Below are positions 4,862 to 64,000 of a stretch of 64,000 bases of DNA, one piece after another. This DNA is from a virus. Lineage: Duplodnaviria > Caudoviricetes. Numbering within the stretch: the first letter of the stretch is position 1; every line of letters starts with the position of its first letter. The position numbers were made by a program, and so were the translations under genes. Below the pieces are notes generated by a model that saw only the letters and a program-made list of their open reading frames with translations, searched no databases and was not told the DNA's origin. Location: IMG/VR virus record IMGVR_UViG_3300035365_000057, positions 12,555-76,554 of that record. The stretch is one strand, 5' to 3'.

Positions 4862-7800
4862 TTATTTCTCTCCCGGAACCCTATTCTTAAGAGCCGTTCT
4901 GGCTTTCAATTTCTCTCTTTCCATTGCAGCATCATCTGACATTTTTTGCAATTTCTCTTCGTGCTTCATTCTTTCTTTTTCTAAGGCAACTTTCTTATCT
5001 TCAATTTCTTTCTTCATTTTCTATTCACGAATCTTATTATTGAATTCAAATTGCTTAGATGCTTCTTCTGAAGCTTGTTTTCTTTCTTCTAAGGCCTATC
5101 GACCGATTTCAAGTATATCTGGTTCGCCATTATTATTTGCATCGGTATCAACAGAACCCATATATGCATTAAGTTGAGCTACAGCTATCTTAGTCGCATT
5201 ATCTTGATCAATCTTGTATTTTTCAAGATCCATTTCAGCTTCTTTAAGCATAAGCTCTTCTTCTTTGATTTCATTCTGCATCTGAATAGCTTGCTGTTCT
5301 CTCTGAGCTTGTGCTTCTTCCATTGCTTGCTGTTGTTGCATACGTTTTTGTTCTATTTCTTCAAGTCTATTCTTGATCATAGTAACATTATCCATAGTAA
5401 TGATCTCAGCAATATCTAACAAACTAGCGCCATTCTACATAGCTGGCTACATGAGATTCTTAAGAGCTTCTATCTGTTGCTGATTCTTAGTAGTATCTTC
5501 AATAAATACATCCATATCTTCATAGAAGAAATTATCAGACAGTGTTATAAATGCTCTTGTTGCATCATCTAATACATACTATATCGATGTTTTATTATCT
5601 TTCCATGCATATTTAGCAGTATTCAGAAGCATTGTTATTGCTTCTTTTTTAACTCTGTTATGCACCCAGAACCAAGGTTCAGTAATATGAGCAGACTGTA
5701 TCACAGATCTTTCTACATTACCAACTAATTCATTAGAAGAAATTGCACCTTCTCTTTGCTTACTTACCCCTGATATTTCAGATAACATTGATTCGATCTT
5801 ATCCATAAGATTAATATACTAATCTATAGTATTAGCCATAGTAAGATCTAATGCTGATATCTGATTAAATGTAGAAGAGTTATGGCATATCGTAAAATCA
5901 TCGAGTAAGAACAAATTATCTCTGTCCAAAGTAAAACCATAATATTCGTCAATACCATAGTATTCTATTTTGAACATAGATCGATTTATGTCTTTCTGAT
6001 GAGTTTTATCTCCCTTAGCTTGTTTTCTAGCTATCTTGGTAGGTATTCTTTCACATCCTGACAGAATGGATACAACATAAGAATATTCGCTAACGTTCTT
6101 ACACAGTTTAGAAGGTTTTAACTTTTTCTTACGTATAGATACCTTCATACCTAAACTTCTAGCTATAAAAGCAAAATCGTAAGCAATATCTTTTCTATAG
6201 TCTACCTAACAAAAACCAAATCTTTTCTTTTTTGGGTCATACCATCCATCAGAGTCTATCAAACCTGCTAGTAACTCTAGTCTATCTTGCTCACAACAGT
6301 AAATATATTCTTTAGGAATGTATTTATTCTCAAAGATCCCTAATCGTTTCAGATTTTGTATTATATAGTTTGTTGGTTTATTTCTATAACCTTTTTCAGA
6401 TTTATCTGTAAGTACTAAACTTACGTTCATAGCTTTTTCGTTACGTACCTTATCGTATCTTACTCGCATATTATTATTCAAAGCAAATTGCTCCAAATAA
6501 TCCATTATTTCATAATCTGCAGTTGTTATAGTTGGTTTGGATGTCGTACCATCTCCTAACCAAAGCCCAAGCAGGTAAGGATCGAAACTATTCCTTTGTT
6601 CTCCAAAATAAAGTCCATCTTTACGATATAAGTAATATTTATCTCTACATGAAGGAGTTCTATTAAATCTCTCCATTAATGTAATTGGAGTATCTGTCTT
6701 AAAAGTAACTTCTCCGGTATGATGGTTCTTAAATCCATAATATATCTCATGCTTACTATTTACGATTTGTGGATTTCCTCCAGAAGATGGAGTAATCTTG
6801 TACATATGATCTTTTCCATGGTGAAGTTCTAGTACTGTACGTGGAGTTCCATCAGCTCCCATTACTTTATCAAACAGTTTAATATCTTCTACATTTTTTA
6901 AAGATCCGTCTGCCATTATTACTTTAGTACCCTTAATGTGACATTTACCACCTTCTCTACCAGGTATATCCCAACCTTCTTCGTACGGATTAACAAAGTT
7001 AACTCCTAGCGCAGATAAATAATGCATCCATTTAGACACATCAATATTCATTGATTTAGGTATTTGAGTAATATCCATGGTTATGATCTTACCTTTGTCT
7101 CTAGCCATAGCTAACTCAAGTCTATACCATATTATAATATACATATATTGTAAAGGCTTCATCATACTTACTAAGCTTCGTGGTCTGCTATTAGTATTAT
7201 TGTATATTACACCTGTATATGGTAATCTTTGAGCATTTGGATTATCTGCAGATATGTGTTGATACTCTAACGGTTGTATACCGATATATAAGTCTTCTCC
7301 AACTCTATAACCTTCCCAAACATCAACAATCCATTTCCATTCAACATTCAATTCGTTACCTGTAACTTTATAACTTTCATCAACTTCATATTCTTCAGGT
7401 TGTCCTGTTTCTTGATTCAAGATAGTAACGAATCCAATCTTTCTAAAAGACTTCCAACAACAATGCCATACGTGAACATTATCTGAACTTTCAAAAGGAT
7501 TGGATGTGAATCCGTTAATTGTATGTGTTTTTATATGAGGATAATCTAATGAAGTCTTACCTAATTTTGGAGTAATACCACCCTTAGATGCATCATCCAT
7601 TAATTCTAGTAACTAGTCTAGCTATTTTTCTGACATCTTATCATAAAGCCTATCATATACTTCAGTAGATGACATTATCATTTCATAGCAGCACCATTCG
7701 GCATCGTGGATGAATTCTAGATCAGAAGTATCAGTATCATAATCAAAGTATATAGGATTTATTCTTTCCATACAAGGTTCTCCATTCTATATACCTACGT

Positions 7801-8431
7801 AATATACTTCTTCACCGCCAATCAGAGCATCTTTCCAACCTTTAAAGAATTCGTGAGTTATATTTAATTTATTCTTTAAATAATTAAGACTATGATATGC
7901 TACAGATTCTGCTATATCCTTATAGTCTTTACTCATATATTTTTGTATCTATTCAGGTTGCATTACTTCACCAGATTGTAATGCCTATTGATATCTAGCT
8001 TGATCTTCAGAACTTAATCTACTCATAATTTCAGCCTAGATATAATCAATTAGCATCTACTTGGCTTTATCCTACATCTCACTAGTAGCTATATCACTTG
8101 TTCTGCTAACTCTGAAATTGAAAGGTCTTTTTGTTTCTTCACCTAATAATAAATCTATTTTTGGTTTGATTATATTATAGTCTTGTGCTGTAGCAGGGAA
8201 ACCATCTTGCTGTTTAAATGGGTTTGTAACATACTTAAGATCTTTCTCATTATATATACTATTATATAAATCATAGTATGTCTACATTTCTTCTTTCCTA
8301 GTACGTGTATTTCCATTTCTGGAACCACCTTGACTACGACCTATAATATAATCAACGCAAGCTTCTTGCCACTCTTTTGTCTTCTTAGACATAGGTAGCT
8401 TCTATATTGGCATTTGATTAATATTATTCAT
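4862..8431 (-). CDS. Portal protein with intein (1189 aa precursor, TAG read-through)
   Basis: ATG 8431 MNNINQMPI(TAG)KLPMSKKTKEWQEACVDY; track ORFs 5096, 5579, 5819 and 6206 share the frame of TAA 4862; typical position between TerL and MCP. Confidence 0.85.
5879..6943 (-). mobile_element. LAGLIDADG/DOD homing-endonuclease intein in portal (355 aa)
   Basis: N-junction GGK|CHIKGTKVIMADGS; LAGLIDADG blocks YLLGLWLGDG and LLAGLIDSDG; C-junction YGFTLDRDNLFLLDDFTICHN|S. Confidence 0.92.
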
Positions 8432-8433
8432 AA

Positions 8434-10479
8434 TTAAAACATATATGCTTTTAAATCATCAGTATCGTCGTCACGAAACCAATTTTGTGTAAAAATAGGA
8501 CCTTCAAATAGTACCCTATTTTTATTTTCTTTTTTAACTTCTTTTACTTTAACATTATATAGCTGTTCTCTATATATCATTACTTGAGTCAACGCCATCA
8601 CCCTATCGACGTTGTTGACGTCATTTGCAGCTATCAATTCCTCTAATAGCGGTTCTGATAGGATGTTGTATAAGTTCTTCTTACCATCAGCATTGATATC
8701 ATTTAACCAATCTTTTATCAGACCCCAACCCCACTATTTAATCTATTTATTCATATGGCAACCTTTCTTACGTTGTACTTTGGAATTGCTAACAATATCG
8801 TTTATGATGTCCGGCTAATCTGCTAGTAGATAATCACAATGTTTATTAGTAAAGTATACGAATATACCTTTATTCTGATTTTCATACATTGCCCGTGCAT
8901 TATAGTATATCAGCAATTTTCTAACATTTTCATAGAATTCGTCTGCAGTTTTTGGTCTACCAGTATACTCTGCTACAATTATATCTGAATACTATTCTAT
9001 AGACTAAACTCGCTTATATATAATACAAGAACCTAATGACGTAGTACTAGATTCATCATAGTCGTATGAGTCTATACCAGCTATGTATAAACCAGTCGAT
9101 GCTTCTTTATTTGGATGCTCCCATATTACTATAGAGCCTTCTGGATTATCTTCTTTCTTTAACGGATAATGAGTTATATCACCACTCTTCTTTATAGTCC
9201 ACCTCAAACTACCATCTGGTTCCCAAGTAAGATCACCGACCTGTTTATAGTTTTTTAGATTCTTATTAGTTCTTAATAGTGCTAACTATTCCTATAATTC
9301 TTTTTTAGGGAATATATTACCATTAAATTCCAAACATGCCTCTGATGGAGTGATACAGTGTTCTGCTACATATCTATCTATAGTATTACTATTTGTAGCA
9401 TTTTCGATTACTTTTCTTCTTTCTTCTAGTATGAATTCTAAAGACTTTTTGTGCAGCGTATTACCATCATCGTCCATATATATTCTGTGACCTTCTTTAT
9501 CACGAAAATCAAGATTGGTATACTACGGAATAAAGAATCCGCACTTCTTTGTAGTAGCTGATTCATCCCATATATTATCAAATTCTAGACAATTATAACC
9601 TTCTGGATTATAAAACATATCTTTTAGTGTCTCGAAATGGCTACCTTCATCACCACCAGTACCAAACGCAACCATAGTACCAAATGCAACACCATCCTGT
9701 TCTACAGACGGTCTGGCTATTTGCCATGCTGCGCCTAATTCTGAGAAAGAACCAGCTTCTTCAAATATAATTAACTTACCAGCTTTACCACGAACAATAT
9801 CAGGATTGTCTTTCAAAGTAACACCTATGATTTCTGATTTATATCCTAATTCTACTTCATTACCATAATCATCTTTAGTAAAGAATCCAGCACGTTTACG
9901 CATCTAAGTGTTAACTGATCTTTTCTTACCCCAAGCAGTATTCTTATCTATAAAGTTCATATAATCCCAAGCTTTAGTAAGTATACCATCTTCAGTAAGA
10001 TATTGTTTATTAGAAGCGTATATATAGGTTTTTGAGTTGGGAATTAAATAATAATTACGGCAAGCCATTGCAGCATTCTTATAGGAATAACCCTTTCTAC
10101 GACTCTTTAATGCACATAGATGTTTTCCTTCTTCTTCAGCTTGTTGCATAGCCTAAAAGAAATAGTAATCGTAATCATAGAAATCTGGGAATAATAATTC
10201 TCTTGTTTTTACTATTTTCTTTATACCATTTACTATTTTTTCTTTATACACTATTCTCTAAATAGGACAATAGTTTAAATAAAAATAGTTATACCCACTG
10301 ATGTAATCACCATCATCAGTAGTATAACCATCAATACATCTATTTTTTTCTCTATCCCAGAACTGAAAGAATTCCGATGTACCCTAAGGATATGAACAAT
10401 ACTAGCCAGTATTTATAAAGGTCAAAGCCGGCTGACGGAATTTATCACTATTATGTATCTTTTTAGTAAAGTCAATCAT
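8434..10479 (-). CDS. terL: Terminase large subunit (681 aa, TAG read-through)
   Basis: ATG 10479 MIDFTKKIHNSDKFRQPA; Walker A-like KSRRKGYSYK, Walker B IIFEEAG, nuclease YIAGIDSYD; five track fragments share one frame. Confidence 0.9.
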
Positions 10480-10513
10480 GTTATTGATATGCGTAATATG
10501 GAAAAGTTATAAT

Positions 10514-11245: not shown

Positions 11246-11408
11246 AATCTCTAGTCTATTTAAAAATTGAATTAAAGGTAGAAAGCTTTCTTGATTTTTA
11301 GTACTTTCCTTGAGGAGCTACCATTACCTCCAACTACCTCTTCACTGTTGATCTTAACCTAAGAGGACATACTCTGCTATCAGACTTCAAGTATGCAGTT
11401 TTTATTTG

Positions 11409-11480
11409 TCGCCCCAGTCTCGATTCGAACGGACAACTCGAAGGTTAGAGCTTCGCATATTACCTTTATACTATGGGGCA
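11409..11480 (-). tRNA. Amber suppressor tRNA (anticodon CUA), probably Gln-charged
   Basis: TGCCCCA/TGGGGCG acceptor; anticodon arm CGAAG-CT-CTA-AC-CTTCG; T loop TTCGAAT; T stem has one bulged A; CCA not encoded. Confidence 0.9.
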
Positions 11481-20968: not shown

Positions 20969-21498
20969 TCGTACGATTGAGTTTAGGTTTGACTCATAAA
21001 ATAAAGTAACTAATCTTAAAGCAAGCAACGGAGAATAACGCTGTACCAAAACAGAGGACAATGGTGCTTGACAGTATGACACTAACTGATAAATAATGTG
21101 TTGTGAAAATTAATTAAAATTCATGAATTTTACTCAAGCTATATAGTGTGAGTAAACGTACAGCCGCACGTTAGTGGGTTACAGTTCGTATTCTAGCAAG
21201 AAAAGAATATTGTATTGCCGAAAACTGGGGACATGTAAATAATACGTAGGTTCCGTACACATGTTGAAGAAACCAATCGAATAGTAAGCATAGAGAAATA
21301 GGCAAACGACCAGCCAAAATGGTAGTGCTTACAAATAAAAAAGATAAGAGAAAGTGATATCCGTGCATATATAGATATCTTAGTATAGTTAAGGCCTCAA
21401 GCTGCACTGAGCAAATATATTACACTTATCTTTATTAAACTCTTTACTGAATTGCAGCCTAAATATGTCAAAGGTAGCGCATGAAAGTAAAGAGTTTC

Positions 21499-21679
21499 TA
21501 CACTGTGAGAATCAGTGTCAACTTTGTGGGGCTTATATTTAGATGAGCGCACAAAAGTAAACCTATATTGTGTGTAGCATTTCGAAAAATTATATTTAAA
21601 CTAGCTAGATAATTCGTAGAAAGAGTGATATCAGTATAGAGAGACTTTTGCATCTAATATTAGTGCAGAGAAATCAAAG
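21499..21679 (+). ncRNA. Hatchet self-cleaving ribozyme 1 (with ~100-nt insertion)
   Basis: P1 ACACTG-TGAGAAT-CAGTGT, CAA, CTTTG, TGGGGCTTATA, TTAGATG/CATCTAA stem, TATTAGTGCAG, closing CAAAG. Confidence 0.85.
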
Positions 21680-21783
21680 ACAAGATTATATCCTGAGTGT
21701 ATAATCTAGTAAACTACTAGAGGCTGGTCACCTCGGCAGGAAAGCGCGACCATGGAGAGGTTTGTGGTAGTACCTCTCCGCTC

Positions 21784-21889
21784 TTTATGGTGAGAATCCA
21801 TGACAAGCATGTGGGGCTTATATCTTTATGAGAGACAATACGGTAAAAATACCCTTCATAAAGTATTAGTGCGGACTTAAAAATCATGC
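21784..21889 (+). ncRNA. Hatchet self-cleaving ribozyme 2
   Basis: P1 TTATGG-TGAGAAT-CCATGA, CAA, GCATG, TGGGGCTTATA, CTTTATGA/TCATAAAG, TATTAGTGCGGACTTAAAAAT, closing CATGC. Confidence 0.9.
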
Positions 21890-25163: not shown

Positions 25164-25234
25164 CTTTTTTTATTTGTGTCACTTTACCTTTTTATGTTTT
25201 AAGTCATACTAGTCTGTGAGGATAGGTATGACGT

Positions 25235-25353
25235 CCTCAGAAGATGACAAACCTGTGGGGCGTAAACTATGTCCTATTTTAAGAGTTAGGCTTGCATAAC
25301 TCAGTAAATCAGGATGCAAGAACATAGTGATCGTGCGGACGTTAAAATCAGGT
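25235..25353 (+). ncRNA. Hatchet self-cleaving ribozyme 3
   Basis: CCTCAGAAGATGACAAACCTGTGGGGCGTAA...GATCGTGCGGACGTTAAAATCAGGT, near-identical to the published hatchet construct blocks as I recall them; ACTATGT/ACATAGT insert stem. Confidence 0.92.
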
Positions 25354-26784: not shown

Positions 26785-26995
26785 CTAAAACTTAGTATAC
26801 ATGGTGGATTCAGTCAACCTAAGAACTATTTTATAACCAGAATCCTAATGGAAGCCCAAAAGGCAAGAGTACAAGGGACCATACAACGGTCAACCAATTT
26901 ATATTGGTCTGGAGAAGAGCAGGGGTTATCTACTAAATAAGACGTACGAATAAGTAGAAATAGTTCTTTTTATTTAAAAATCAAAATTAAAAAAC

Positions 26996-27798: not shown

Positions 27799-28149
27799 CA
27801 AATAAAAGAGGCTCCAAACTTAGAATCTTTGAATCAATAGTTAATGTATGTCTACGCGTGAAAAAAGTACGGTGTACAAAGCACGGCGGTACAAAGACCT
27901 GAATTAACAGGTCTCATGCAGAATCTTTGAATCAGCCATGAGGAGCTACCGTGAACCACTGATCATGAGTCTGAGATCGCGACAATAAGATTGTCCTCTA
28001 GCAATAGAGAAAAGCTTTAGTCGTGATATCAAGTCAGACAGAATATGCAGAATCTTAGAATCTGTATATAGTAATAAATATGCTTTATACACATATTCGT
28101 ATATTATCAAGATCAGAATTATAGGACTAACCATCCTAAGACCAAATAA

Positions 28150-28411
28150 GGCTAGTAACTTTGGTCGGTCACTAGCCTACTATTGACTGTTAGGTCATTA
28201 TACAATCGTTAAGACGGGGCTCTCGGATGCCCCTACCTCCACTAAGTAATGTTTACGTAATTAATTTACACAAGAAACGTTCTATTTTATGTATATTATA
28301 TTAAGGGGGTAAACGGTTTTTGATTAGCGATGAGATGTAGTGAATAGGTCAATAAAGCCGATAAATGGCAAAACTTTCGTAACAGACTACACTCGTATCG
28401 CCGCAGCGTGA
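28150..28411 (+). ncRNA. ssrA: Circularly permuted (two-piece) tmRNA gene
   Basis: Acceptor piece first (GAC-GGGGC-TCTCGGAT-GCCCC-TACCTCC-A, 28213-28241); coding piece later (GGGGGTA...GGTTTTTGA from 28305); G3.U70 pair; three P2 helices between the pieces; tag frame GKTFVTDYTRIAAA-TGA at 28367-28411. Confidence 0.88.
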
Positions 28412-28452
28412 TACAGGAAGTCAACGGCTAAGCTAATGTCGTAAAAAGCTGG

Positions 28453-28508
28453 AGTAGGGAGGTTACCTAGATTAAGTTCTATGGGGAGTTCGATTCTCCC
28501 CTCTACTA
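28453..28508 (+). ncRNA. Minimal tRNA-like element (acceptor stem plus T arm, no D stem)
   Basis: AGTAGGG/CTCTACT 7-bp stem, GGGAG-TTCGATT-CTCCC T arm, discriminator A, internal TAGA/TCTA mini-hairpin. Confidence 0.65.
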
Positions 28509-28545
28509 CTATTAAAATTAAGTTTAATCAATAAATTAATTTGAA

Positions 28546-28839
28546 ATGGGATTAATAACATTTATTAGACGTAATCTACCAGAACCGGTAGAAAAAGCTT
28601 GTTTAGAAATGCGTATGAAAGAACAAGTTGTTCAACGCATTTATGGTGCAGTACCTCAACAATTCAAAAATAAATATCATTACAAAGAAGGGTTGAGTCG
28701 TATAAAACTCATATTTCATTCTATTACCGAAAAAGGTACAGCCATATATCATTTAATTGATATGACTGATGTAGAAGATCTAACTAAGTGGAAAGAATTA
28801 GACAACAAAATCAAAAATTACAAAGAATATGCGCGTTAA
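28546..28839 (+). CDS. Hypothetical protein
   Basis: 97-aa ORF. Confidence 0.65.
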   Translation: MGLITFIRRNLPEPVEKACLEMRMKEQVVQRIYGAVPQQFKNKYHYKEGLSRIKLIFHSITEKGTAIYHLIDMTDVEDLTKWKELDNKIKNYKEYAR

Positions 28840-29903: not shown

Positions 29904-30467
29904 ATGACAGAGAAAGATAAACAAGAAGTATCTGACCTGATCAAACAGGCTAAAGAAGGTAAACAAATTGCCTTCTCAAAACTTTACGAAATGTTCAAAA
30001 GACCTCTTTATATTACTATCATTAAGATAGTCAATAATAAAGACGTTGCAGATGATATCTTATCAATGGCATTCGTAAAGGCGTTTACTAAACTAGATAG
30101 TTATGTAAACGATATTTCATTTGAATTATGGCTAAAAACAATAGCTATAAATAGTAGTATCGATTATATACGTAGGTATAAGAAAGACTCAAGCTTATAT
30201 TGGATTGATGATGACGAGAATTGTAACATTCAGTTGGGTAGTACTGCAGATTACTCTCCTGAAGAAGATTATATCTTCAAAGAAACCGATTCTCGTTTAT
30301 CAGAAGCTTTTAGTAGATTGAGATTCAAGTATCGAAATATACTCGAACTACGAACCGTTCAAAATCTCTCTTACAAAGAGATTTCAGAACAGTTAGGCCT
30401 TAGTGAAAGCCAGGTAAAATCCACGCTCAACAAGGCTAGAGAGAAATTAAAACAATTGTTAAACTAA
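29904..30467 (+). CDS. ECF-type sigma-70 family RNA polymerase sigma factor
   Basis: Region 2 (AFSKLYE...ADDILSMAFVKAF...FELWLKTIAINSSIDYIRR) and region 4 (LSYKEISEQLGLSESQVKSTLNKAREKL). Confidence 0.9.
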   Translation: MTEKDKQEVSDLIKQAKEGKQIAFSKLYEMFKRPLYITIIKIVNNKDVADDILSMAFVKAFTKLDSYVNDISFELWLKTIAINSSIDYIRRYKKDSSLYWIDDDENCNIQLGSTADYSPEEDYIFKETDSRLSEAFSRLRFKYRNILELRTVQNLSYKEISEQLGLSESQVKSTLNKAREKLKQLLN

Positions 30468-44438: not shown

Positions 44439-44514
44439 TGTGGTTTAGCTCAGTGGTAGAGCGACAGTTCTTAGTAAGCTGTAGGTCGTAGGTTCGAATC
44501 CGGTACAACCACGG
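44439..44514 (+). tRNA. Atypical tRNA (6-bp anticodon stem, loop CTTAGTA; 2-nt bulge in T stem)
   Basis: TGTGGTT/AACCACG acceptor, GCTC/GAGC D stem, ACAGTT/AGCTGT, GTAGG-TTCGAAT-CC(GG)TAC. Confidence 0.7.
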
Positions 44515-49057: not shown

Positions 49058-52000
49058 TTAGAAGCTCATCAATTGATTCTATAAATAATTTCGTTTAGAT
49101 TTTGGATCTTGTGCTTCAATAATACTTCTAAAAGGTGTTACCTTTATAATATTTTTTAAAATTCTTGGCATTCCTTCGTATACACCTCTATCGATTATAT
49201 CAAAAGGTCCTTTTCCTCCGAAGTATGTAAATGGATTAAATAATCCTATAATATTAGAAGCATTCTCCAAAGTTGAAAATGCTGCTGTTGGAGATTTAAT
49301 CATTGAAACAAATTCAAATGGATTATACATAGTTCTAAATTCAAATGCAGATCGCAATGCCAAATATGTAATAGACTAGAATAACCAATTATCATAATCA
49401 TCATCACCGTCTACAATTGCAGCCATTGTTAAAGCTACTGTTGTAGAACCAGCTATCAATAGCATGTCATATAATACTTTTTTAACAGCATATTGCTCAT
49501 ATTCCTACATATTATCATAATCAGCTAATAACTGAGTAAGAGCAAAATGTCTATTTCCAATTACATTCTTTAAAAATTTTCCAGTAACCCAATAATATCC
49601 ATCTTCTATTACTCCTAAATCCAAATTGAAATGTCTTCTTTTAAATCTGTCGTGCAAACCCTATATCATAAAGTTTTTATGCATTACAACATATGCAGTT
49701 ATTGCATTTGCATGTATAGCTGACTTATCAACCTCTCTAAGAGTTCCGTCTATTCGTTTACTTATTATCTCTATTCTATTTCTAACATCATTCAATAATT
49801 TGTTTGTTACATATTTAGAATATTTATCAGATAATATTGTATCTCCATTTGGTAATTCCTCATACGCATCATATAAATTTGTATCCAATTGTGAAAACAT
49901 TACTTTACCTTTTTTTCTGTTAGCTGGATAGAATTTATTAATGTATTCATTTTCGGACATAAATCCAACACCTTTTACAAATCTATAATTATCATATACA
50001 CTTAATAAAGTGTGACTCTTAACAACGTAATCAGATTGGGTATAACCCATATACCAGAAGTTCTAATTAATAGATCTTAATACCTAGCTCTAATCGAGTC
50101 TATCGAATAATTCTCTATTCTCTTTTACAACCTGATTTAGCATCATAAGATATGCTAATTTTCCTTTCGGAACTGGATTACCTATATTTTCCATCATACT
50201 TGGTAATTGTCTTTGAAATTCCTATATAGCAAATCTTAAATTCTTAGTATTAAAAAATCTACCTAATTTAGATTCCATAGTAGTATACGTAGTATCTGTA
50301 AAGAAACTAGTTGCTATAGACCATATATTACCAGATAGATTTACTTTAGTAATAAAAGATCTTAGTAAATTTAATAACTTAGATACATTTATTTCTTTGC
50401 CGAATATTTCTGTTTGAATAGGATTAACTTTTCTACCATAAAGTATTCTATCAACTAATAACTGTGCCTATTGATAAACATTAGTAGATCCTGCGGTTTT
50501 AATTCCTCTTTTTGTAGAGATCTATATTTGTTTTAATAGATTCAATAACATTTCAATATCATCCTATTTACTACTCATATTTTTATAATTAGCAGCCATA
50601 TCATAATATTGAACTACCGCAGCAACAGCATCAGTACTAATAGTATTCGGATCATCTAACATTTTTATATACCTAGTAGGTATTACTTTTATAGGGTCAC
50701 CATTAGGCATTGTTGAATAATCTTCTACAAAATCTAAATCGTCAGACTATGTTTGAATAACTTCTTCAAAACTATATTTGATAGATCCAAGAACACCTTT
50801 TCTTCCTATAACTTGCATATATCTAGCAGGTATTTGAGGCATTCTTGTATCATCGTGATTAACCAAGAAAGAAATATAAGAATTAGCTTTCAACATTGTA
50901 TCTGTTATCTAATCATATAATTCTTTTACTTCTGGTTTATTAGCCATTTCGTTGTACGCTTTACTATTATCATACAATTTCTTGTTAGGCTGAATTGATG
51001 GACCATTTGGATCGAAATCTTTATTATACCAATCAGAACTAGGATCTACATCACTATACTTATTTATAGGTATTATTTCAGTATATTTTTCAATATATTC
51101 ATCTTTTGGTTTTAATTGAGTATAATAAGATGCCGGTCTCATTTGTCCTCTGTTATCTTCGTAGTGATTAGCATCAAACCATTCCTAGAATTTACCATTT
51201 TCTCTAGCAATATTTGCGTCTCTATAATATTCATCGGTAGGTACAACCTCAGCGAAATTAGAAAATTTATCGAGTAATCCATCCGGATCGTCTACTTTTT
51301 CATACGTACGCAGATCAGCAATATCTTTATCTAACTATAATATTGATGCTTTTTCAATATCAGATAATGAATCGGCTTTTACTGTACCAGTTACTGGATC
51401 TCTAAATAATCGTAATATATATCTTCTCTTTTCTCTTAATTCGTATTCAGTATCACTAGTTTCATTATGTGATAACTTTTCTATTCGTTTATAGAATTCT
51501 TCAGTATATACTTTTTGAGTATTTCTCTAGTACCATAATTTATATTCTTCAGAATCTGCACCGTATTTAGCGATTACTTTATTTTTAATTTTATTAAATC
51601 TTTCCTGATCTGTTTTATATTTTATATGACTTTTGACAGTTTCATTAAATTCTCTTAATTCCTTAGATATTTGAAGAGCATCACCAGTTTTAGAACTTCC
51701 ATCTAAGTTAAAAGGATTGGCTAATAGAGCTTTCTATTTTCTTAAATCCATAAGTATACGATACTCTGATTCAGATAATAAGTTATCATATTCAACTCCA
51801 TCAATTGTTATGGGAGATGTTATATTATCTATGAATGTATCTATCTCTTCTATAGCTTGTTTTGTTTTAAATGATAACATCTTATTTTTAAGAGTATAAT
51901 ATTCAGATTTAAATCTTCTATTAGAATGAGAATTATGGAATTCATTAATACTACTATACCATTTATTTTGAATATTCTCGTCATCAGGTATCTGCCACAT

Positions 52001-54493
52001 ACCGTTTTCATCTTTTTTGATACCTAATTTATCTGCTAACTTCTAGATAAATTCCTATTTGTCTTTATGATGTTGACCATAATTAATAGGCATTACTTTA
52101 TTTCCAGATAAAGTACCATCATTCAAACGTTCGTATAATAATTTTTGAACATCATTACCATATTTTTCTTTAGCCTTATTTAATGTTTTTACTAATGATA
52201 CTCCAACTTCCATAGTTTCTCTATCAGTCTGATTCATAGTATCATTTAATATTTTAGCTATTGATGTAATAACAGCATTACTACTATTACTAGACATGCC
52301 AGCCCATAATTGTATGATAGAAGTATCTCTATCAGGATTATTTATCCAATTTATAACATTATCTACAAATTCTTGTGGCATATTATTTTGAGATAAGTAA
52401 TTCTATAAATCCTGTATAGCTTTTCTCTTTTTAACATTGTTAAAACGATTGTTTATCATACTAATTTGGTTGGAAATTGTAATAAAATTATTATACAATT
52501 CGTCATAATTATTCATATCTTTGAATATATCTGTAGTATCCATAAGATATATAATATTATCAACCAATGGTTTATAGAAGCCTATAAAATCTCTAGAAAG
52601 TTGATTTATTTGTTTAGAATTGATTTCATTTATAGGTCTACTTAAGAATTTTATACTATCACCTAAACTATCAGATACGTGATTCATAAATTGTATAATA
52701 CCTTGTTCTGCCTCAGAATTTTGTAGCTATTGAATTACAGTAGTCAATTTATTCCATACTTTAGGATTTTTATTAGTATATCTCTTTATTGAATTTAATC
52801 TTTCTTTAAGACCTTTTTGAATATTCTAGTATAATTTATCTACTTCTGTTTGATATTCTGATGAAACTTTATTATACTATCTATATGCGCCATCATTAGC
52901 ATTATATGTATCAATATCTCCATCATTAACTTTATCCAACAAATCAAGTATTTTATTCTATAAATTTACTAATCTATCGTCTAAAGTTACTTTGGTATTA
53001 AAGTCAGTACCAAATAATTTATTTATTACAGTAAGTAATGCATTTTTAAGTAATTCAAATATACCAACAGATTGAATTTTAAGTCTTGTTCTAAAGTTAG
53101 TATTACTCATGAATTCATTTAAGAATTCTATAGCAGAATCATTATCGCCAAGACCATACCAATCTGTACCTATTTTATCTCTATAATAGTTCTAGAATGT
53201 TTTTAATTCCTCTGCAAACTGTTTATTATTATCATAGTATTTCTATAAATAATGGTGTAATAATTCATGAGCAATATCCTCAGCAATCTACTAATAACTC
53301 TAAGTACTAATTATATCTGATTGTAAGTTGACAGCACCATCGTACCATGCTACAGCATTAGATTTAGGTCTACCTTCATGTATTATAAGCTAAGTACCAT
53401 GCTCTTTTAATTTAGATAATAATTCTTTGGTAGCTCCATTTATATTCTTATTTAAAAGAAAATCTATGATTTCAGAAGTATTAGAAAATTCTCCTATTTC
53501 TTTTAATATATCTTCACTATAAGTATCATTTAATTCATCAATTATATCATTCTACTATTTGTAGTAAATGTTGTCATCAAATTGTGAAAATGTTCCTTGA
53601 TTATCTATTGATTTTATTTGATTTGGATCTTTTACTATTATTTCATAATTTTCTTCGACTAACTGTTTAGAATTAATATTTGGAATTATTCCATCATATT
53701 TGTTTATTTCTTCTACAGCATCATTCCATTTTTTATTAACGTCAAAATCTAACTCTTCTTTTGATTTTTCTTGAAGTTGTGTTTGTAAATCTATAAGTTT
53801 ATTTTTGTAATGCTCCAGATATTGCTTAGCTATTTCATTATGCATTGAACCTTCTTCTCTATAACTATCATAATCTGGGTCATTACCGTATAACTTTTCT
53901 TCATAGTCTTTAATAGAAAATTCAACTACATCAATATCTTTTTGAATTTTTTCTCTTAATGTAACAGATTTTGCTTTTTCCCTACCAAACGAATCTGTCA
54001 TTTGAAATTTTTCTTTAGGAACAGGATTTTTAATACTAAGATAAACTGGTTTTATAACATTGCCGTACATTTCTGAAACATCTTTTCTTGGAGAAAAATA
54101 AAATCCTAATCCCCAATCTCCTGGGTCAGTAGTTCCCCTAAATTCTCTAGAAAAAGCATCAAATTCGTTTACTGTGCCATGATAAACAATTAGCGGTTCA
54201 CCATTCTCATCTACTACTTTGGATACTTCAGTTTTATCTTCAGTCAACCAATCACCAAACCATTCTTTAAAAGCATACGAGTATGCTTTAGATTTAGCCT
54301 AAATAGCTTTAGTTCTATCACCATTATAATGTTCTAGAAGATCTGAGAATAACTTAGAATCATTACCATTAGGAGCTTTATCTAAAGCATTACCATTATT
54401 CTAATCCCAAAGATAGTAGGCTTGGTTTTCGCCTACTATCTCTACTAATTCCTTCCATTCTGGAAGATTCTTATTTGGACAATATTTATTCAT
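49058..54493 (-). CDS. Large polyvalent virion protein (1811 aa, TAG read-through) with ADP-ribosyltransferase-like and HExxH domains
   Basis: ATG 54493 MNKYCPNKNLPEWKELV; all seven track fragments share the frame of TAA 49058; VVDENGEPLIVYHGT...GFYFS; HELLH at 53255-53269. Not every codon checked. Confidence 0.8.
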
Positions 54494-54494
54494 A

Positions 54495-57400
54495 TTATAA
54501 ATCACATATAAATTTGTTAATTAAACCTTCCATTTCTTCATTAGTAGAAGGATTTTCTTTACGTAATAGCTGAGTAAACTCATTAAGTTTAGTATCTATT
54601 TGATTATCATCGATAACCATGTCTTTACTCAAATCTGTTAAGTATGATCTCATTTTCTATATAGCATCAACTTCCATCTATGTTATTCTATTGAAATCAT
54701 TAGATGAAACGGTATTATAAGTTTTTTCATATGAAATATTGTTAGTAACGTTTTCAGGTTCTTCTTTTGTTTCCAATACACCGTGATCACTTTCGTCAAT
54801 AGAATCTTCATCTTCTTGATATACCATATCCTATATCTGATTAAAATTACCATTATAAACTGGAATATCCCTTAACGGAAACATTTTGGAATTCTTACTA
54901 AACGCTAAGTCATACCACAATTCTCTTTCAAAAGAATCAGCCATATCAACTAAAGCTTCTTGATTATTTAAAGCTTCGGCATAGTTATACTCATTTTCTT
55001 TATTGAAATCAAATCTTGTACTGGTGCCGTATTCATATATTTGATGTCCGCGATACTTATAACCTTTCTTTGATACCAAACCATATAATGGAATATATTG
55101 TGTATTGCCATATTGATCATATTTTCTACAGTATCCTATTAATTTATAAACATGATAGTTATTTATACCATATCCCTATAAATCATTTATTTTAATAAAT
55201 GGTGGAAATACCGGTAAAATATCATCATCTACTTTGGTCCAATTCAACGGTTTTATTTGTGGAGTATCTTTTCCGAATCGTATACCAGCAATTATATTTG
55301 GAACTACTTTATTTTCATCAGTAAATGATATACTTAAAAGTTTATTGTTATTCTTATCGTAATAGTCTATAGGTCTAACCAATTTATCATTAGTCCAACC
55401 GTTTAAGAATACATCTTCTTTTGAAGAAGTATAATCATTTGAAGTATTTGATAATTGATTCAGAATATTACGTATGTAATCAGTATATCCAATTTGAATT
55501 CTATAACTATTTGGAACAAACTAGAAGAAAGTATTCATACCCGGATTATCTGCAGATGTCAAGAACGCATATACAACCAGATCTTTGAATAATTTACTTA
55601 TCTGAGGATCGGAATCTTCTATAAGTTCTCTCCAATAGTTTATTAAATTATTAGCCGTAGCCTAATCTGTATCTAATAGTTTGCTAGTATCGATGAAGTC
55701 TAAGCCATTATTTATCTTGCCATCACTAATATTTGGAACAAGATAAGATATAAAATCATTGGCAAATGTTCCATCGTCATTAAGTAAATGAACAAGTCTT
55801 TCGTTTTTCTTCTTTATCAATTGCTAGAAATTATTTATACGCTTAGCCATAGACATACCACCAGTAAACATACCGTTTACGTCAATGTTATTATCTTCGA
55901 TAAACTTATTAAAGAATTCTGCTTTAATCTGTCCTTCCATACCAGATATTACAGAATTTAATAATTTTTTATCAGCATTGTTTTGTCTACCTAATAATTT
56001 TAATATTTCGTTTTGTTGAGATATAAAAGAATCTGTATTCCTAAGAAGTAAATTTCTAAAGATAGATATTCCAAACGGAATAGCGTTATCTGTTTTTCTC
56101 TATATAAACGTTTCGTTAAAGAATTTCTCTATAGATCCTTCCTAGAAATGAGTATCATCTTTCATAGCTAACATTCCATTATAGTATACTAACTATTCAG
56201 CAAAAGATTTACCAGTCTTTTTTGTATCAATCTTAGAATATTTAACAAGATTGGCTAGAGCGTCTGCATATGGTTTAATCATCTTATAAGCATAATACAT
56301 TCGTACCTATTGCTCATTATATGACATACCATCACCAAGAACGTCAATACTAGATTTATCAGCAAACAGTAATTCTCTTGTGGAAGATGTTTCTATTGTT
56401 TTACCATCTACCTCTTTAGTATACGTATCAAATATATCAGAATATACCTAAGAAGCTAGTTTATTATTCTTATTTATAGTATCGTATTTCTTTCTAAGTT
56501 TCTTATCTGGATCATATTTACTTAAAACACTTTCTATAGCTTCATTCTCAAGCTGAGAAGGTGTTTTTGTTCTATCTATGCCATACTTACCCTTAGTTTT
56601 GAGAACTGCATCAGCCATCTCTTTAAGAATAGGTTGTGACATAAAATAGAATGTCTATTTGCCTTTACCAGTTCTCAATAAGAATGCTACCATATTATAC
56701 GTCCAAGCATTCACATTCAATCTAGTAATATAAGGATCCTTAGCGATATCCACAAAACCATTAATCATTGCTGATAACCAATCTAGAATTCTACCTCCTT
56801 TTGGTTGTAATGCTGTAGGATGATCAAATATTCTACTAACATCATTTATCTTTAATGCTTTTGTAAATTCATTAGAAACCATTCGTAAACCAGTTAACTA
56901 TGTTAATATATGATGTGCATTATTTAATGCAAACGGGCCAATACCTGATTTACCAACCGTATATTCAGATTTTCTAGCTTCTTGGTAAGATGGTGTATAT
57001 ACTCCGAAAGGAGTAGCATACGTGTTCTATCTACCACTTTCTATATCCTTCAGAACAGCCTTAACATTATCTGTAGCGATATCAATAGATAATTTTAATT
57101 GATTTGTATTCTCTTTAGTAAGTAATACTCTTAAATAATTACGAATCAATTCATTCTTATATGCCGATTTAACATCTTCATTAGTAAGAGCATCATCTTG
57201 ATATATTATTTTGCCATTCTTATTATAAGAATATCTAGCAACATAAAGTTTATCGATATCGAAGTCAGAACCAGTTAATTTGGTAAAATCTTCTGGTAAC
57301 ATTATCGTATCACCCATTATTTCAGGGAATACATCTACAAAACGTAATGGAGATATAGATGCTATAGATTGCGTTGGAATACGATAGCCTATTGCAGAAG

Positions 57401-60400
57401 CTTCAGCATTTTCACCGATAATATTATGATCTATTAACCACTGTCTAGCTTCAGTAAATGTCATATTACTATAGTTAGGTATTATATATTTAAATAAGTT
57501 AATACTTACTATAGAATCCATAGAGCCATCTTTATCATTTATTGGTTTAAGATATTTTCCATTGCCAAGCATACTAGGAGTAACAACATCCAAACTGGTA
57601 GCTTCCTAACCGAATACAGATCTCTGAATAAATGCACCTCCTGGCAAATGTACGTCAACTATCTCTTTATTTATCATCGATATGAAACGGCTTTCTAACC
57701 ATTTATTATCGGACAATGCAGATAATGGTATCACAAAAGCATCGTCTTTAGTTGCTAATCCTGATACTATATTATCATTAGCATCAGATTCTCTAGCATC
57801 CTATAATAACATATCAGACAAAGCGGCTATTTTAACATTACCATTCCTATCAAATAATTTATCGTATATATCTTGTTTGCCTAGATCTGATAATTTATTT
57901 ATTGCTCCAATGACATTATCTTTTATTTCATTTCCGGTAACTTTATCACCTTCTTTTCCATACAAATCGTCAAGTCTAAGATTTGATAAGTTTACTTTCA
58001 TGAACTGAGTACCTAACATTTGTTCTTCGTGTGTGTGCGGATTAGTTTCTAATTGCTGTCTTATATACTTATATTTTTGTTTATAAGTGGTAATATTATC
58101 AAGATTATTTAATACCTTGTATCCAGCTTCCAATCTATCCATCATTTCTGCAGATAAAATAGTTTGCCCATCTTTCAATTCTATTTCTGAATCAGATGCA
58201 TCTTTATACATCTTAGCCGGATTTACAGAACCAGCTTTAACAGCAGAATTGAACATAAACATGTCTACACGTTTATTAGGATCTTCGTCTACCATTTTAT
58301 CATACAAGACTTTGATATCTCCTGTAGCTACAGATTTAAATAATGGGAACAATGCCATCTTATTGAAATATGGTACACCTAAACCAGGAACATCGAATCT
58401 AGTTCCAAATGCTACATATTTCATAGCATTTAAAATAACTTTATTAGCTTTAGCGTACAAATCTTTATCAGATTCCCATTTATCTGCTGTTTCTGGATTT
58501 GTCAGTATATCGAATGCTTTCTTTATATCATCAGACCATACACCTCTCATTCGAAGTAAATTCTCTGTCATCTTAGGGCTGATATATACTGCAGCATCGG
58601 CCACATTTATTTCAGATTCATAACCTTCTACTTCTCGATTAGTAGCCATATTAGCATACTTATAAGCTTCCGGATATTTCTATTTGATATCATCTTTTGA
58701 TAAATCCTTTACATCATTCCAAGCTTTTTCACCATGCATTTGTATTATGGTCTCTCTCAAGTTACCGTCAAAGAAAAGATTCTTATATATATTATATTGC
58801 CTACTCTTTACTTCATGGTCTTTGAGTTCTGCAACAGTATATTCATCTGATTCTAACGGAGCATTGAAGAAGTCCAATCTATTATTTAAACCAGTAGAAG
58901 TTAATGATCCCAAACGTTTAATCTTATCTACGGATATATCTGTTATTCCATTTCTGTCGTATTTTACTTTATAATAAGCAGGAGAACCACTAAACAGTTT
59001 TTCAATTTCTTGAATAGATATTATACTGTTTATGGTATAATCTGCGATCATATCATATACTGCAAAACCTTCAGAATTAACAGAATCGAAACCACCGTAT
59101 CGTTTCTTCCTTTCATCTAATACTTCATCATCTAAAAGATTATTACGTAAAGACCAAATATTCATTTGATCATTAGCTGTAATTATACCATTATCGATAC
59201 AATATTGTAATTCATCTTTAATTCTTGTAGCTAGAACACCGCTTAAGAATCGTTTCTTTGTTTCTCTACTAAGATTAAAGAAATATTCTTTTGCCGTCTA
59301 TAGATTTTCTTTAGCTGTCTTTGTTGGATCATTGAAACTAATAAATTCTTTATTTGTATATATTCCCGTTAAGAATAAGAATCTAGTTCCATTACCTTCT
59401 AGAGTTACTTTATGTTTAACTCCATCTTTATCTGTATATTGATATGTATTCGGTGTATGAAAGTTTTTAATTCTTCTTTCTTTTGGTAACCAATCATTAT
59501 TTATAGTACCATCTTCATTATAGTGAATACCATCTTTTACATGATTTGGATCATCATCAATTTGTCTTAAACATAATTCTATTTGATTTAATTCGTCTTC
59601 ACAATATCCTAAGATAGTATCTATAGTCTAATCACCAAATGTTATATAATACTTACCGTTTTCTGTAGGAGTAAATTGTACAGCTTCGTGTGGTAATTTT
59701 ACTCCGGTTATCATATGATAAGTTTTCTTATCAGCTACAGTAGGGAATATTATTCTGTCTTTCTAAACGAAAGCCATCTTTGCTAAATAGTCTTCTCTGT
59801 CAGTAATACCAAAGTAATCTCTACCAGAATCATAAGTAGAAGTATTATCTTTAAAATTAATGAATGTTTCTACTTTAAGATTTGCACCTTGTTCAGCAGA
59901 TTTAAGCAAAATAGAATTTTGATTATATACTACAGATTTTAGTTGATCTCTAACTTCTTCATCATTTACCAATTCATTAACACGGTCTTTAGCAAAATTA
60001 TTCTAAGATACCATATAATACGAATTACCATCAGGACCAATACTGCTTAGACTTCTATCTGTAGCATGAACCTCAGCGTAGTTGTTAGCTAATTCTTTAA
60101 CAAAACCATTATTATTCCATACTTCAGATGGTTTAAATGTCTTGTCGTATAAACTTATTTGATCTACAGTATTATCTTTAGATATAGATTTTAATACACT
60201 TTCTAAAGTTGTTATGATACTATCTATACCACCGAAATGCATTCTAGAATTAACAAAAGAATTCAGAAGAGTATATTGATCCATAGACGGATTTCCATAA
60301 TCTCCAGACTATAACATATTATTTATAGTAGGAACATCTATTCCAATTCCAACAGTATTTAATATACTTACTATCTGCGATTTGAGCCAGTCTTGATTAC

Positions 60401-63400
60401 CAGAAATATGTAAATCAATCTTATTACTTCCTATAACCAATTCACCTCTGTTCTGAGTAAAAGCTGTTTTAATAGAATTCAATGCTTTTATTATGCGGTT
60501 TATACCGTTTTTAGCATTGTCTGTAGTTTCAACCTTACCTTCTTTATTATAATGAAATAAACCAGAACTTATAAATAAATACTGAGACCATACTCTAGGA
60601 TATATTGCAGCTTTTATATCTACGGTATTATCTTTTATTTCAATTTTATTGAAATCAGTTTCAGTATCTTTATTTATGGCAACAGTTACGAAATTGTTAA
60701 CGTCACCTGTTAATACCGTCTCTATCTTAGTTAACAAAGCCTCCGCATTTGCAGAACCGTTTATAGATTTTTGTATTTCTGATTGCAATTTAAATACAAA
60801 AGATTTGTAAAATAAGTCGCCGTTCTAAGCCAAATTATTTGCTTTAATTAATATCTAAGATATTGTTCTGCAATTATGAAGGTCTTTTAATACTTTTGTC
60901 CAAGCAATATTACTATCAACAAACATTGGGAAATTAGTATAAGGATCTTGTTTTACAACAGCTATACCGTTTTTACCAATCTTGTAATCAGGAATTGTTT
61001 GTATAAAGAATTTTACTTCAGCGGGAGCATTATCTTTTATTGATATATTCATACCTTCTACAGTATGCTGACCGATATTTACTCCTTCTGCACCTTCTTC
61101 AATTTTACTTATATTATCAGATTCATTTCTATCAACTGCTCGTATACCAAGATTCTTTAAACGTATGGCGACTTCTTTAGAAAATATATTATCAAAATTG
61201 TCATATATTTCCTACATTACAGGATTTGGATATTTATATAACTGTGCACCTATTACTAATTTAAGACGATCAAATGTAGGTTTTTCTTCATTAAGATCAG
61301 CATAGTTGATAGAGTGACCATCCGAAAATGCAACATTAAAGAAAGCATACAGTAAACTCTTGCAAATATCATCGAATTGTTTTTGTTTCTGTATATGCTG
61401 GAACTTGTATCCGTTTACTTCATAATTGGGTCCTTTACCCTAATATATGTTTCTGAATCTTTCTACGTTCTATTCACTTGGTTTTATACCAGAGAACTTT
61501 CCTCTATTTATTTGAGAATATAATTTAGCAAGACCATAAGATCCAGTTCTCACCCACAATCTTATAAAATCATATATTCTTCTAAACCAATTGTTTGTTT
61601 CGAAATCAAATGTCTTAGAGTCATTTAACATGAAATCTTTGAAAGAATCTGCTAACATTTCTTCTATTTCCGTGTCAGACATATTCTTTCCAAGTCTTTT
61701 ATTAAATCTCTAATATATTTTATTTCTATGTTTATCATCAATTAATAATTGAGATACTCTATGCCAAGCTTCGTGATACTAAACACCTTCTATAGAAGTA
61801 TCTGATAATAATATAGAATCTTCTGTTACTCTACCAATAACAACACCACCTGCTTCTGTTACATCAATAACACCATTTACAATTTCTGGAGTAATACCTA
61901 AGGTATTTGATAACCATTCGATAGCTTGATTAACATCCATTTTATATTCTGAATTCTTCTGCAAACCTTCTAATTCAGTCTCGACTACTTCCATATTTGG
62001 ACCTTTTCTGTTTGCAGCATCCATCATTTTTAATGTTTCTGTTATATCTACAGTGTGTATAGTACCGTTCTAATCCATTACTTGAAATCCTTTGGTACTA
62101 TCTTGTTGTTTTGCAGCAGTAGTAACCTGATTTAATGTATCTCTCTGTTCATTCGTAATCAGTTGAACATCATCCACATATAAATTAGCATTCCATAATC
62201 TATCTGCTATATCTGTTAACAATACGCCTTGTTTAATATACCAGCCTAATTCGCTGATACCGTTTGTACCATCAAGTACTATTTCGTTATTAGCATTTCG
62301 TTTTAACCCAAAATCTTTCAGTGTAAATTCAAACTTACCTGGTATCATTACAATTTTATCCAGGTTGTTATTACGCATAAACGCTCTAACCGAACTAAAT
62401 CTACCATCTTGATTTTGAACAGTATTATCTCCTCCTAACTGCAGATTTAATAAAGAATTTTCATCAACACTATAATGAAAATTATCTATAATATATTGTC
62501 GAGCCTGATTATATATATCTTTGTTACTTAATAGATCATTTACTGTAAATCTATTAGTACCCATGATTATATCACCATTCTAATCGATATAGAATATTTT
62601 CTTCTGCATTTCTGCAGCTTGATTCTAATCAAAATTAGCTGGATCAAATACCGTCTATGGGCCGATATTTACTATAAAGTCTAATAGGTGTTTATTCTCA
62701 ATATTAGTTCTGACGCCATTAGCATCTGTAAAATATTGATCATTACTAAGTAATAATTTCAGAATCAAATCAGCTACTTCTGGTTCTTCCGAGAATTTCT
62801 TAATATTTAGTTTTACTAATTTTGTGTCATTACCTCCGTCTGCTCTAGGAACTTGTATTTCCAACATTGGTTGGCCAAGATAATGTCCTCTACCACTCAT
62901 TACTCTAGAACCAAAACGTATGATGCGGTTACTTCTAGGACCAGTAGTTATACCTATTTGTGTATTCTGAGAATTGATTTTATACGGATCTTTTTCAGTA
63001 AGCCAAACAGATTCTGTTAATTTTCTGTTTTTAGGACTATTGTCATCATTCTTTTCATTAAAGAATTGACCTGTTGTCCTATGTAACATTGTAGGTACAA
63101 TTTTAGAATTGACAATCTTTTGTGATTGTCTATTTAACTCTAAAATCTTATTACGCAAATCTATTAAATTTTGTTTAATAGCCTACCATTCATTATATGA
63201 TCTTCTATCAGGATTAAATCGCTTATTAGCAATATAATCTATTCGTCTAGGTGTGCTTACTGCAGCAATGTATTCTTTACCGTTATACGGAATCATTAGA
63301 TATATAGCATCCTCAGTAATACCATTTTTATCCTTATATGGTTTTACTACAAAATACGAATTCTTACTTGCTGAACTAATGAAATCATCATTACATATCA

Positions 63401-64000
63401 CATTAGCGAGTTCATCGTTATTTAAGTATTGTTCCATTCCTTGATAAGGAATTTTCTCCCAAGAACCATCTTGTTTCTATTGTGTTAAATGGTATTCTAA
63501 TTGATGTGAATAAGGATCACTTTTTTGATTATAATTTAATTTTGGTAATTCCTACTGATCGTTTATAGACTGATTTGTTGTATTCATAGCATTTGCAGCT
63601 TCTTCGCCAACAAGTCCACTAAGAACCTCGGATAATGTAGGAATATCTACAGCCTTTTCAGATTGCTGCTTCTATTGCTCTTTAGTAGGTTGTACAGGAT
63701 TAGAATCGTTTTGCTATGCCTTCTATACTTTTGGAGAATTCTACTACTTTTTAGCTTCCTACTATTTTAATTCTTCCTGAATACGCTATTCCTCGGCCAT
63801 TTGCTATAAACGAGCACGTTCTTGTTCTTCGTATTTCTATTTTAACTTATCTTGTATTTTCTAAAGACCTGTATTAACAAATGAATTGTAAGCTAATCTA
63901 TCTTCTAATTTTTCTGATAATTCATTCAGATCATTTGTTAATTTTCTGATATTTTTAAGTTCTTCATCGGATGTTATATCTTTAGAATTGAAGAGAGATT
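54495..64000 (-). CDS. Virion RNA polymerase polyprotein (>3168 aa, start beyond window, TAG read-through)
   Basis: Sixteen track fragments share the frame of TAA 54495; catalytic GSDFDIDK at 57252-57266; HEAWH at 61761-61775. Not every codon checked. Confidence 0.85.

Follow-up and report, generated by a model that had tools for sequence, protein, structure and literature searches.

The plus strand of the 64-kb stretch of viral DNA analysed here (the window, part of a 76.5-kb IMG/VR contig that is 77% complete) carries a circularly permuted tmRNA gene at positions 28181-28452, in which an acceptor piece, a spacer and a coding piece follow one another in that order. The arrangement, with the 3' tRNA half upstream of the 5' half and a spacer between them, is evident both from the sequence and from a call by ARAGORN at its -ps90 setting, and a reading of 27900-28700 recovered in place every element that a preliminary description of the region had listed.

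Anatomy of the tmRNA gene

The acceptor piece (28181-28242), which is the 3' half of the tRNA-like domain and whose stems persist in 87 unique homologues through compensatory changes, starts with one strand of helix P2c (28181-87), followed by an invariant internal loop (28188-94), strands of P2b (28195-201) and P2a (28205-12), and GAC (28213-15). The T arm (28216-33) has a 5 bp stem (28216-28220 with 28229-28233) closing an 8-nt loop (28221-28228), and is followed by the 3' strand of the acceptor stem (28234-28240), a discriminator A28241, and C28242. CCA is incompletely encoded, with the 3' end in the window and in its homologues always being A-C followed by a base other than C. The intervening segment is AT-rich and about 62 nt long (28243-28304, with its left boundary at 28242/3); it folds no better than shuffled sequences, and is presumably unstructured and removed in maturation. 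In the homologues it ranges from 14 to 916 nt and its sequence is not conserved. Single-sequence folds of the pieces are also no better than those of shuffles, with the weak exception of the acceptor piece taken together with the hairpin upstream of it (z -2.16).

The coding piece (28305-28452, ending at G28452) is 86% identical by blastn to the tmRNAs annotated in cr114_1 and cr125_1. It opens with the 5' strand of the acceptor stem (28305-28311), which forms seven pairs with 28234-40 including G3.U70, and continues with a D-loop analogue containing GG (28312-23) and the second strands of P2a (28324-31), P2b (28337-43) and P2c (28348-54). The three P2 helices that join the pieces are thus 8 bp (28205-12/28324-31), 7 bp (28195-201/28337-43) and 7 bp (28181-87/28348-54) long, with standard pairs throughout. 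A tag frame was expected behind the sequence ATAAAT, and 28367-28411 does read GKTFVTDYTRIAAA from a GGC resume codon (28367-69) to a TGA stop, with a helix-5-like hairpin around the stop (28395-401/28408-14); the ARAGORN -ps90 call predicts the same tag. The interval between P2c and the resume codon is just 12 nt long, and pseudoknot 1 is therefore absent. The invariant 20-mer behind the tag (28424-43) lies in the sole candidate pseudoknot of the gene (28424-28450), and the invariance of this sequence leaves no co-variation to be read there.

Directly 3' of the coding piece is a tRNA-like minihelix of 56 nt (28453-28508, plus strand), with an acceptor-like stem (28453-59/28501-07), a canonical T arm (28484-500), A28508 and C28509. 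An element of this kind, 42-80 nt long, begins at the same point in 70 unique homologues, with canonical T loops and many differing but fully paired acceptor stems. From its position and conservation, the minihelix (28453-28509) is likely to be an RNase P signal that creates the 3' end of the coding piece. At six loci (L018, L036, L050, L051, L023 and L076) another conserved element of ~70-80 nt precedes the tRNA-like element downstream of the coding piece.

A further conserved RNA module lies upstream on the same strand (28107-28177) and contains a small hairpin at 28123-37 and a second one at 28150-77; pairing is possible between the loop of the latter (28160-66) and 28140-46. The module occurs in a subset of the relatives only, has stems that vary between phages with loops that are kept, and has no Rfam match. 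Some relatives have extra sequence between the module and the tmRNA, and it may be part of an upstream RNA rather than of the tmRNA.

Detection by ARAGORN and Rfam

Neither the default mode nor the -ps mode of ARAGORN calls a tmRNA in the window. The ARAGORN check proposed in the preliminary description did return a permuted tmRNA (28151-28502), but at the -ps90 setting only, where the background is one call in the real 64 kb as against one call in 30 dinucleotide shuffles. The proposed comparison with permuted-tmRNA models had a divided outcome: Rfam reports no tmRNA in the window at gathering thresholds, yet RF04321 (tmRNA_permuted) aligns over its full model to 28182-28411 with 38.7 bits (gathering score 47; E = 1.2e-5 in a 2.5-kb search, 8.4e-8 per genome). 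The copy in the window is thus below both curated thresholds, probably because its T loop is 8 nt long. RF04321 is a merger of RF01849-RF01851, which describe the two-piece tmRNA lineages of the alpha, beta and cyano groups; these lineage-specific models are unmatched in the window, the best being beta_tmRNA with 22.7 bits (gathering score 84) over no more than the tRNA domain. The same model gives 27.4 bits in a relative, and two relatives score above the cut-off of RF04321 (50.9 and 50.3 bits).

Homologues in crAss-like phages

A blastn search of a phage collection matched 14 records, all of them human-gut crAss-like phages, and those inspected belong to the Suoliviridae where a taxonomy is assigned. 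Annotated Suoliviridae RefSeq tmRNAs are matched with up to 86% identity (E 8e-29), and the matching place bears the RefSeq label 'transfer-messenger RNA, SsrA' in cr114_1, cr115_1, cr125_1, cr52_1 and cr60_1, with coordinates that are those of the default permuted calls of ARAGORN. The genes that flank the tmRNA in the window match the same Suoliviridae genomes, showing a shared neighbourhood. The invariant 20-mer matches at least 115 IMG/VR contigs, and ARAGORN calls permuted tmRNAs at 54 of 129 loci by default and at 80 of 129 with -ps90. Among bacterial and archaeal genomes (185,579 species genomes) the 20-mer is present in only six contigs, all of which derive from MAGs of inconsistent taxa, with two of them being ~100 kb long; they look like mis-binned phage sequences, and the gene does not appear to be bacterial. 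Since the homologues were gathered by an exact motif and their sequences are related, these counts overstate the number of independent events.

The preliminary description knew of no such form in Crassvirales, and this part does not hold: in addition to the five RefSeq annotations, Table S1 of an ARAGORN survey of 18,146 phage genomes (Buchholz et al. 2022, PMC9004378) lists at least 10 crAssphage genomes as 'Permuted', although its text does not comment on them. A tmRNA database paper of 2025 (PMC11915505) distinguishes three gene forms and has 79 phage sequences in its count, and we did not find a listing of the phages in its supplementary tables. Nor did the literature searched yield a paper that discusses the tmRNA of crAss-like phages, or one on the build of this family, with its absent PK1, tRNA-like 3'-end marker, variable T loops, and relatives with introns or nuclease genes. 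The gene in the window belongs, as a divergent copy, to a family of phage tmRNAs that is catalogued but apparently unstudied, and is not a discovery.

Co-variation of the stems and of the inter-piece helices

In a MAFFT alignment of 84 unique sequences, the structure derived from the window is significant but untidy, and the figures for the acceptor helix and P2b are poor because MAFFT shifted the G-run of the window by one column. We therefore re-anchored the strands on landmarks that are independent of pairing, using 87 unique sequences. The acceptor pairs G1-C72, G2-C71 and G3.U70 are then present in 87/87 copies, so that the alanine identity pair noted at the outset in the window is invariant in the homologues; position 4 is paired in all 87 and positions 5-7 in 84, each with 3-4 pair types. 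All five pairs of the T stem form in 87/87 copies, again with 3-4 pair types each. The homologues have at least 10 distinct acceptor stems, that of the window being one of them; although kinship and motif sampling inflate the counts, the distinct compensated stems are many.

Co-variation of P2, on which the preliminary description had staked its proposal, is seen in two of the helices. Cognate strands of P2a have a mean of -5.8 kcal/mol compared with -3.6 for non-cognate strands, and 0/5000 permutations of the partners reach the observed mean. P2c is nearly invariant, and both of its strands are altered together in one relative (L104); the support for P2b in the MAFFT columns is weak. Between the window and its nearest relative (L019) there are compensatory double changes in both the acceptor stem and the T stem, which argues that pairing is still under selection in the lineage of the window.

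The tag frame

The tag frame is open in 84/84 aligned homologues and has 13-14 codons. Its length differs only by multiples of three, the window having one extra Ala codon, and synonymous codon changes are found at many tag positions. The C-terminal ends (...AA/VA) are conserved, and the stops are TGA or TAA but never TAG in these 84 sequences. The choice between TGA and TAA changes together with that of the Ile codon (ATC or ATT) with which the stop is paired in the helix-5-like hairpin. As judged from these patterns of substitution, the tag frame is under coding constraint, and the in-frame indels, the synonymous changes and the conserved ends argue that the tag is translated and that the RNA is more than a pure decoy.

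T loops and insertions

Most of the relatives have a canonical 7-nt T loop, with 8-nt, 6-nt or odd 7-nt loops in some sub-lineages. The 8-nt T loop of the window was described beforehand as non-canonical, and this is borne out at 28221-28228, where the canonical pattern is lacking and the sequence is unique among 91 unique copies. The window copy could for that reason be impaired; unusual loops recur, however, in sub-lineages with intact tags, and variation at this place therefore seems to be tolerated.

Several relatives have larger insertions. A group I intron lies within the permuted tmRNA gene of cr6_1 and of at least eight IMG/VR loci. The T loop is split by an insert of ~875 nt in L010 (cr6_1, NC_055894.1; 615-1860), L017, L038, L057, L078, L094, L109 and L110, and in L054 the intron insert is at another site. 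Within the T-loop insert Rfam recognises the core of a group I intron (RF00028, 96.7 bits), and behind the insert come the rest of the T arm, which is its 3' half, and the acceptor strand; the insert of cr6_1 also includes an endonuclease gene in the opposite orientation. The spacer is ~600 nt long in L003 (cr56_1; 1544-2125), L012 (cr113_1; 744-1325) and five more IMG/VR loci, and the tmRNA genes of this type are missed by ARAGORN. In cr56_1 and cr113_1 an endonuclease gene is annotated within the spacer, in the orientation opposite to the tmRNA, and there is no match to a group I intron. In L001 (cr114_1) the two pieces of the tmRNA gene have a tRNA-His(GUG) gene between them, within the spacer (1316-1388, 63 bits). 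Default annotation misses intron-split and nuclease-bearing relatives such as these as well as copies like that of the window, and counts of phage tmRNAs are therefore underestimates.

Genome context

Pfam and PHROGs searches with ten neighbouring ORFs identify only an ECF-type sigma factor (29904-30467), and Atlas look-ups of the neighbouring 148-aa and 63-aa ORFs were without result. A scan for sigma-70-type promoters upstream of the gene, which excludes Bacteroides-type and phage promoters, gave nothing useful. Four other RNAs are present on the strand of the tmRNA, a RAGATH-9 RNA (26810-26968, 133 bits) and three hatchet ribozymes (21496-21679, 21781-21889 and 25233-25353), making this an RNA-dense region. 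There is also a weak RAGATH-20-like match at 27896-27978 (31 bits; gathering score 101); RAGATH-20 is matched in full upstream of the tmRNA in cr52_1, cr56_1, cr60_1 and cr113_1, and in cr115_1 the end of a RAGATH-9 RNA abuts the tmRNA gene. Rfam identifies a tRNA at 44440-44512 (37 bits) that ARAGORN does not report.

In-frame TAG codons are numerous in minus-strand frames, namely 54495-63998 (48 in 3167 codons), 49058-54520 (34), 4862-8455 (17) and 8434-10506 (13), and are absent from the large genes listed for the plus strand, on which the tmRNA is encoded. A tRNA with the anticodon CUA is encoded on the minus strand at 11408-11480. The distribution of TAG and the CUA tRNA point to amber recoding of late genes. 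TAG recoding is also found in four reference relatives that have the tmRNA (cr114_1, cr115_1, cr52_1 and cr6_1), which is compatible with the function suggested in the preliminary description, rescue where amber recoding and ribozyme-cut mRNAs stall ribosomes; because all five recoded genomes belong to one phage family, the co-occurrence of tmRNA and recoding may reflect only their kinship.

A six-frame search of the 76.5-kb record (77% complete) with the Pfam SmpB model did not find an SmpB gene, so that function would depend on an SmpB of the host accepting the unusual tRNA-like domain. Bacteroides thetaiotaomicron, used as a control, has SmpB and a standard one-piece tmRNA, and no match to the permuted model.

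Discussion

The closest counterparts of the gene are the annotated tmRNAs of the Suoliviridae phages cr114_1 (NC_055897.1), cr115_1 (NC_055898.1), cr125_1 (NC_055900.1), cr52_1 (NC_055888.1) and cr60_1 (NC_055891.1), with which it shares its place in the genome, the permuted order, the invariant blocks and a tRNA-like element behind the gene. The coding pieces are 72-86% identical and the tags are related (...V[T/M]DYTR[I/L]AA). The gene in the window differs from them in its 8-nt T loop, its extra Ala codon, acceptor-stem positions 5-7, which are changed on both strands, and in being missed by default ARAGORN and the Rfam cut-off.

Two-piece tmRNAs are described from Alphaproteobacteria, some Betaproteobacteria and some Cyanobacteria (Keiler, Shapiro and Williams 2000; Sharkady and Williams 2004, as cited in PMC9004378 and PMC11915505). 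The gene in the window resembles these in having the acceptor piece upstream of the coding piece, G3.U70, P2 joining the pieces and an Ala-Ala end of the tag, but it is much smaller, lacks PK1, does not encode CCA and matches none of the lineage-specific models. The host group, as represented by B. thetaiotaomicron, has a standard one-piece tmRNA, unlike the bacterial two-piece lineages. Permuted tmRNAs are also carried by the marine phage Melnitz and other aquatic myophages (PMC9004378), which like the crAss-like phages are lytic and without an integrase, and the roles proposed there, keeping the hijacked translation machinery running or tagging selectively, could be shared. However, the Melnitz gene groups with alphaproteobacterial ssrA and a glutamine riboswitch is reported with it (PMC9004378), and the crAss-like family has neither this affinity nor the riboswitch. 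In the intron-form tmRNA genes of PMC11915505 a group I intron is placed in the T loop; the copy in the window has no intron, and its intron-bearing relatives combine the intron with a permuted gene, which is outside the forms tabulated there.

The tRNA-like element behind the gene also has a parallel outside bacteria and their phages. Behind MALAT1, the mascRNA is a tRNA-like marker of the 3' end that is cut by RNase P. Here too a tRNA-like fold is directly behind a non-coding RNA and placed for RNase P to make its 3' end, though in the context of a bacterial phage and with the cleavage predicted from sequence.

The best explanation, and one that we consider probable, is that 28181-28452 is a genuine permuted tmRNA, of the family that Suoliviridae gut phages carry. 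Its processing, charging and tagging can be proposed by analogy with established tmRNA biology, which includes the two-piece tmRNA of Caulobacter, recognition of G3.U70 by AlaRS, and delivery by SmpB and EF-Tu. A plus-strand precursor would fold with 28234-40 paired to 28305-11 and its halves held together by the three P2 helices. RNase P would cut 5' of G28305 and also 5' of A28453, the latter with the minihelix as its signal and generating the 3' end of the coding piece. The acceptor piece would be trimmed after A28241 or C28242, its CCA completed by the CCA-adding enzyme of the host, and alanine would be charged by host AlaRS. Host SmpB and EF-Tu would then deliver the tmRNA to ribosomes stalled at the ends of mRNAs, where translation would resume at GGC 28367, append A-GKTFVTDYTRIAAA and stop at UGA 28409. 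The phage may benefit from added capacity for rescue while it infects, as non-stop messages then arise from amber suppression, ribozyme-cut RNAs and mRNA decay; the tmRNA may also impose a tag specific to the phage. Both suggestions are speculative.

Three other readings compete with that of a genuine tmRNA. The copy in the window could be decaying or inactive within a functional family, its 8-nt non-canonical T loop having disabled the tRNA-like elbow, as the uniqueness of that loop among the 91 unique copies, the sub-threshold flag by ARAGORN and the Rfam score below the gathering cut-off might suggest. Set against this are the intact stems, tag frame, resume context and P2 helices, the double substitutions by which both the acceptor stem and the T stem have stayed paired in the window lineage, and the recurrence of odd T loops with intact tags in several sub-lineages, and we regard loss of function as unlikely. 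Somewhat less likely still is that the RNA is a tmRNA mimic directed against the host, which soaks up SmpB, AlaRS or EF-Tu or displaces the host tmRNA. The phage tags are unlike typical bacterial tags, several lineages have unusual T loops, and a tag-less tmRNA fragment of mycobacteriophage DS6A inhibits the host tmRNA (as cited in PMC11915505); the coding constraint on the tag frame nonetheless implies that it is translated.

Chance resemblance, or an RNA of another kind, for instance an attP-type piece of a host tmRNA gene or unrelated hairpins, is very improbable. The sub-threshold scores would be compatible with it if the window were taken alone, but the gene has its two halves, which co-vary with each other in at least 87 unique homologues, the full RF04321 model is above its cut-off in two relatives, and ARAGORN makes default calls at 54 loci. 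A chance match is effectively refuted by these comparative data, and we rejected the attP reading on the grounds that a remnant of this kind would comprise only a 3' part and match the host gene exactly.

If the tmRNA is genuine, a broader reading that joins the observations can be sketched, which as a whole we put forward only tentatively and think rather doubtful. The family would represent a fourth independent origin of permutation and a minimal tmRNA, with no PK1 and at most one 3' pseudoknot, and tRNA-type punctuation would define its ends. Group I introns and homing nucleases, by invading the T loop repeatedly, would keep that loop changing, the 8-nt loop of the window being a working, nuclease-resistant variant, and rescue would be linked to amber suppression, acting on ribosomes that read through TAG and reach the ends of mRNAs.

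The crAss-like phages are among the most abundant human gut viruses, and a whole family of them has its own, apparently unstudied, ribosome-rescue RNA. If functional, it bears on why lytic phages carry a tmRNA at all, on how phages with recoded stop codons handle ribosomes that run off the ends of messages, and on how far the tRNA-like corner of a tmRNA can change and yet be charged and delivered.
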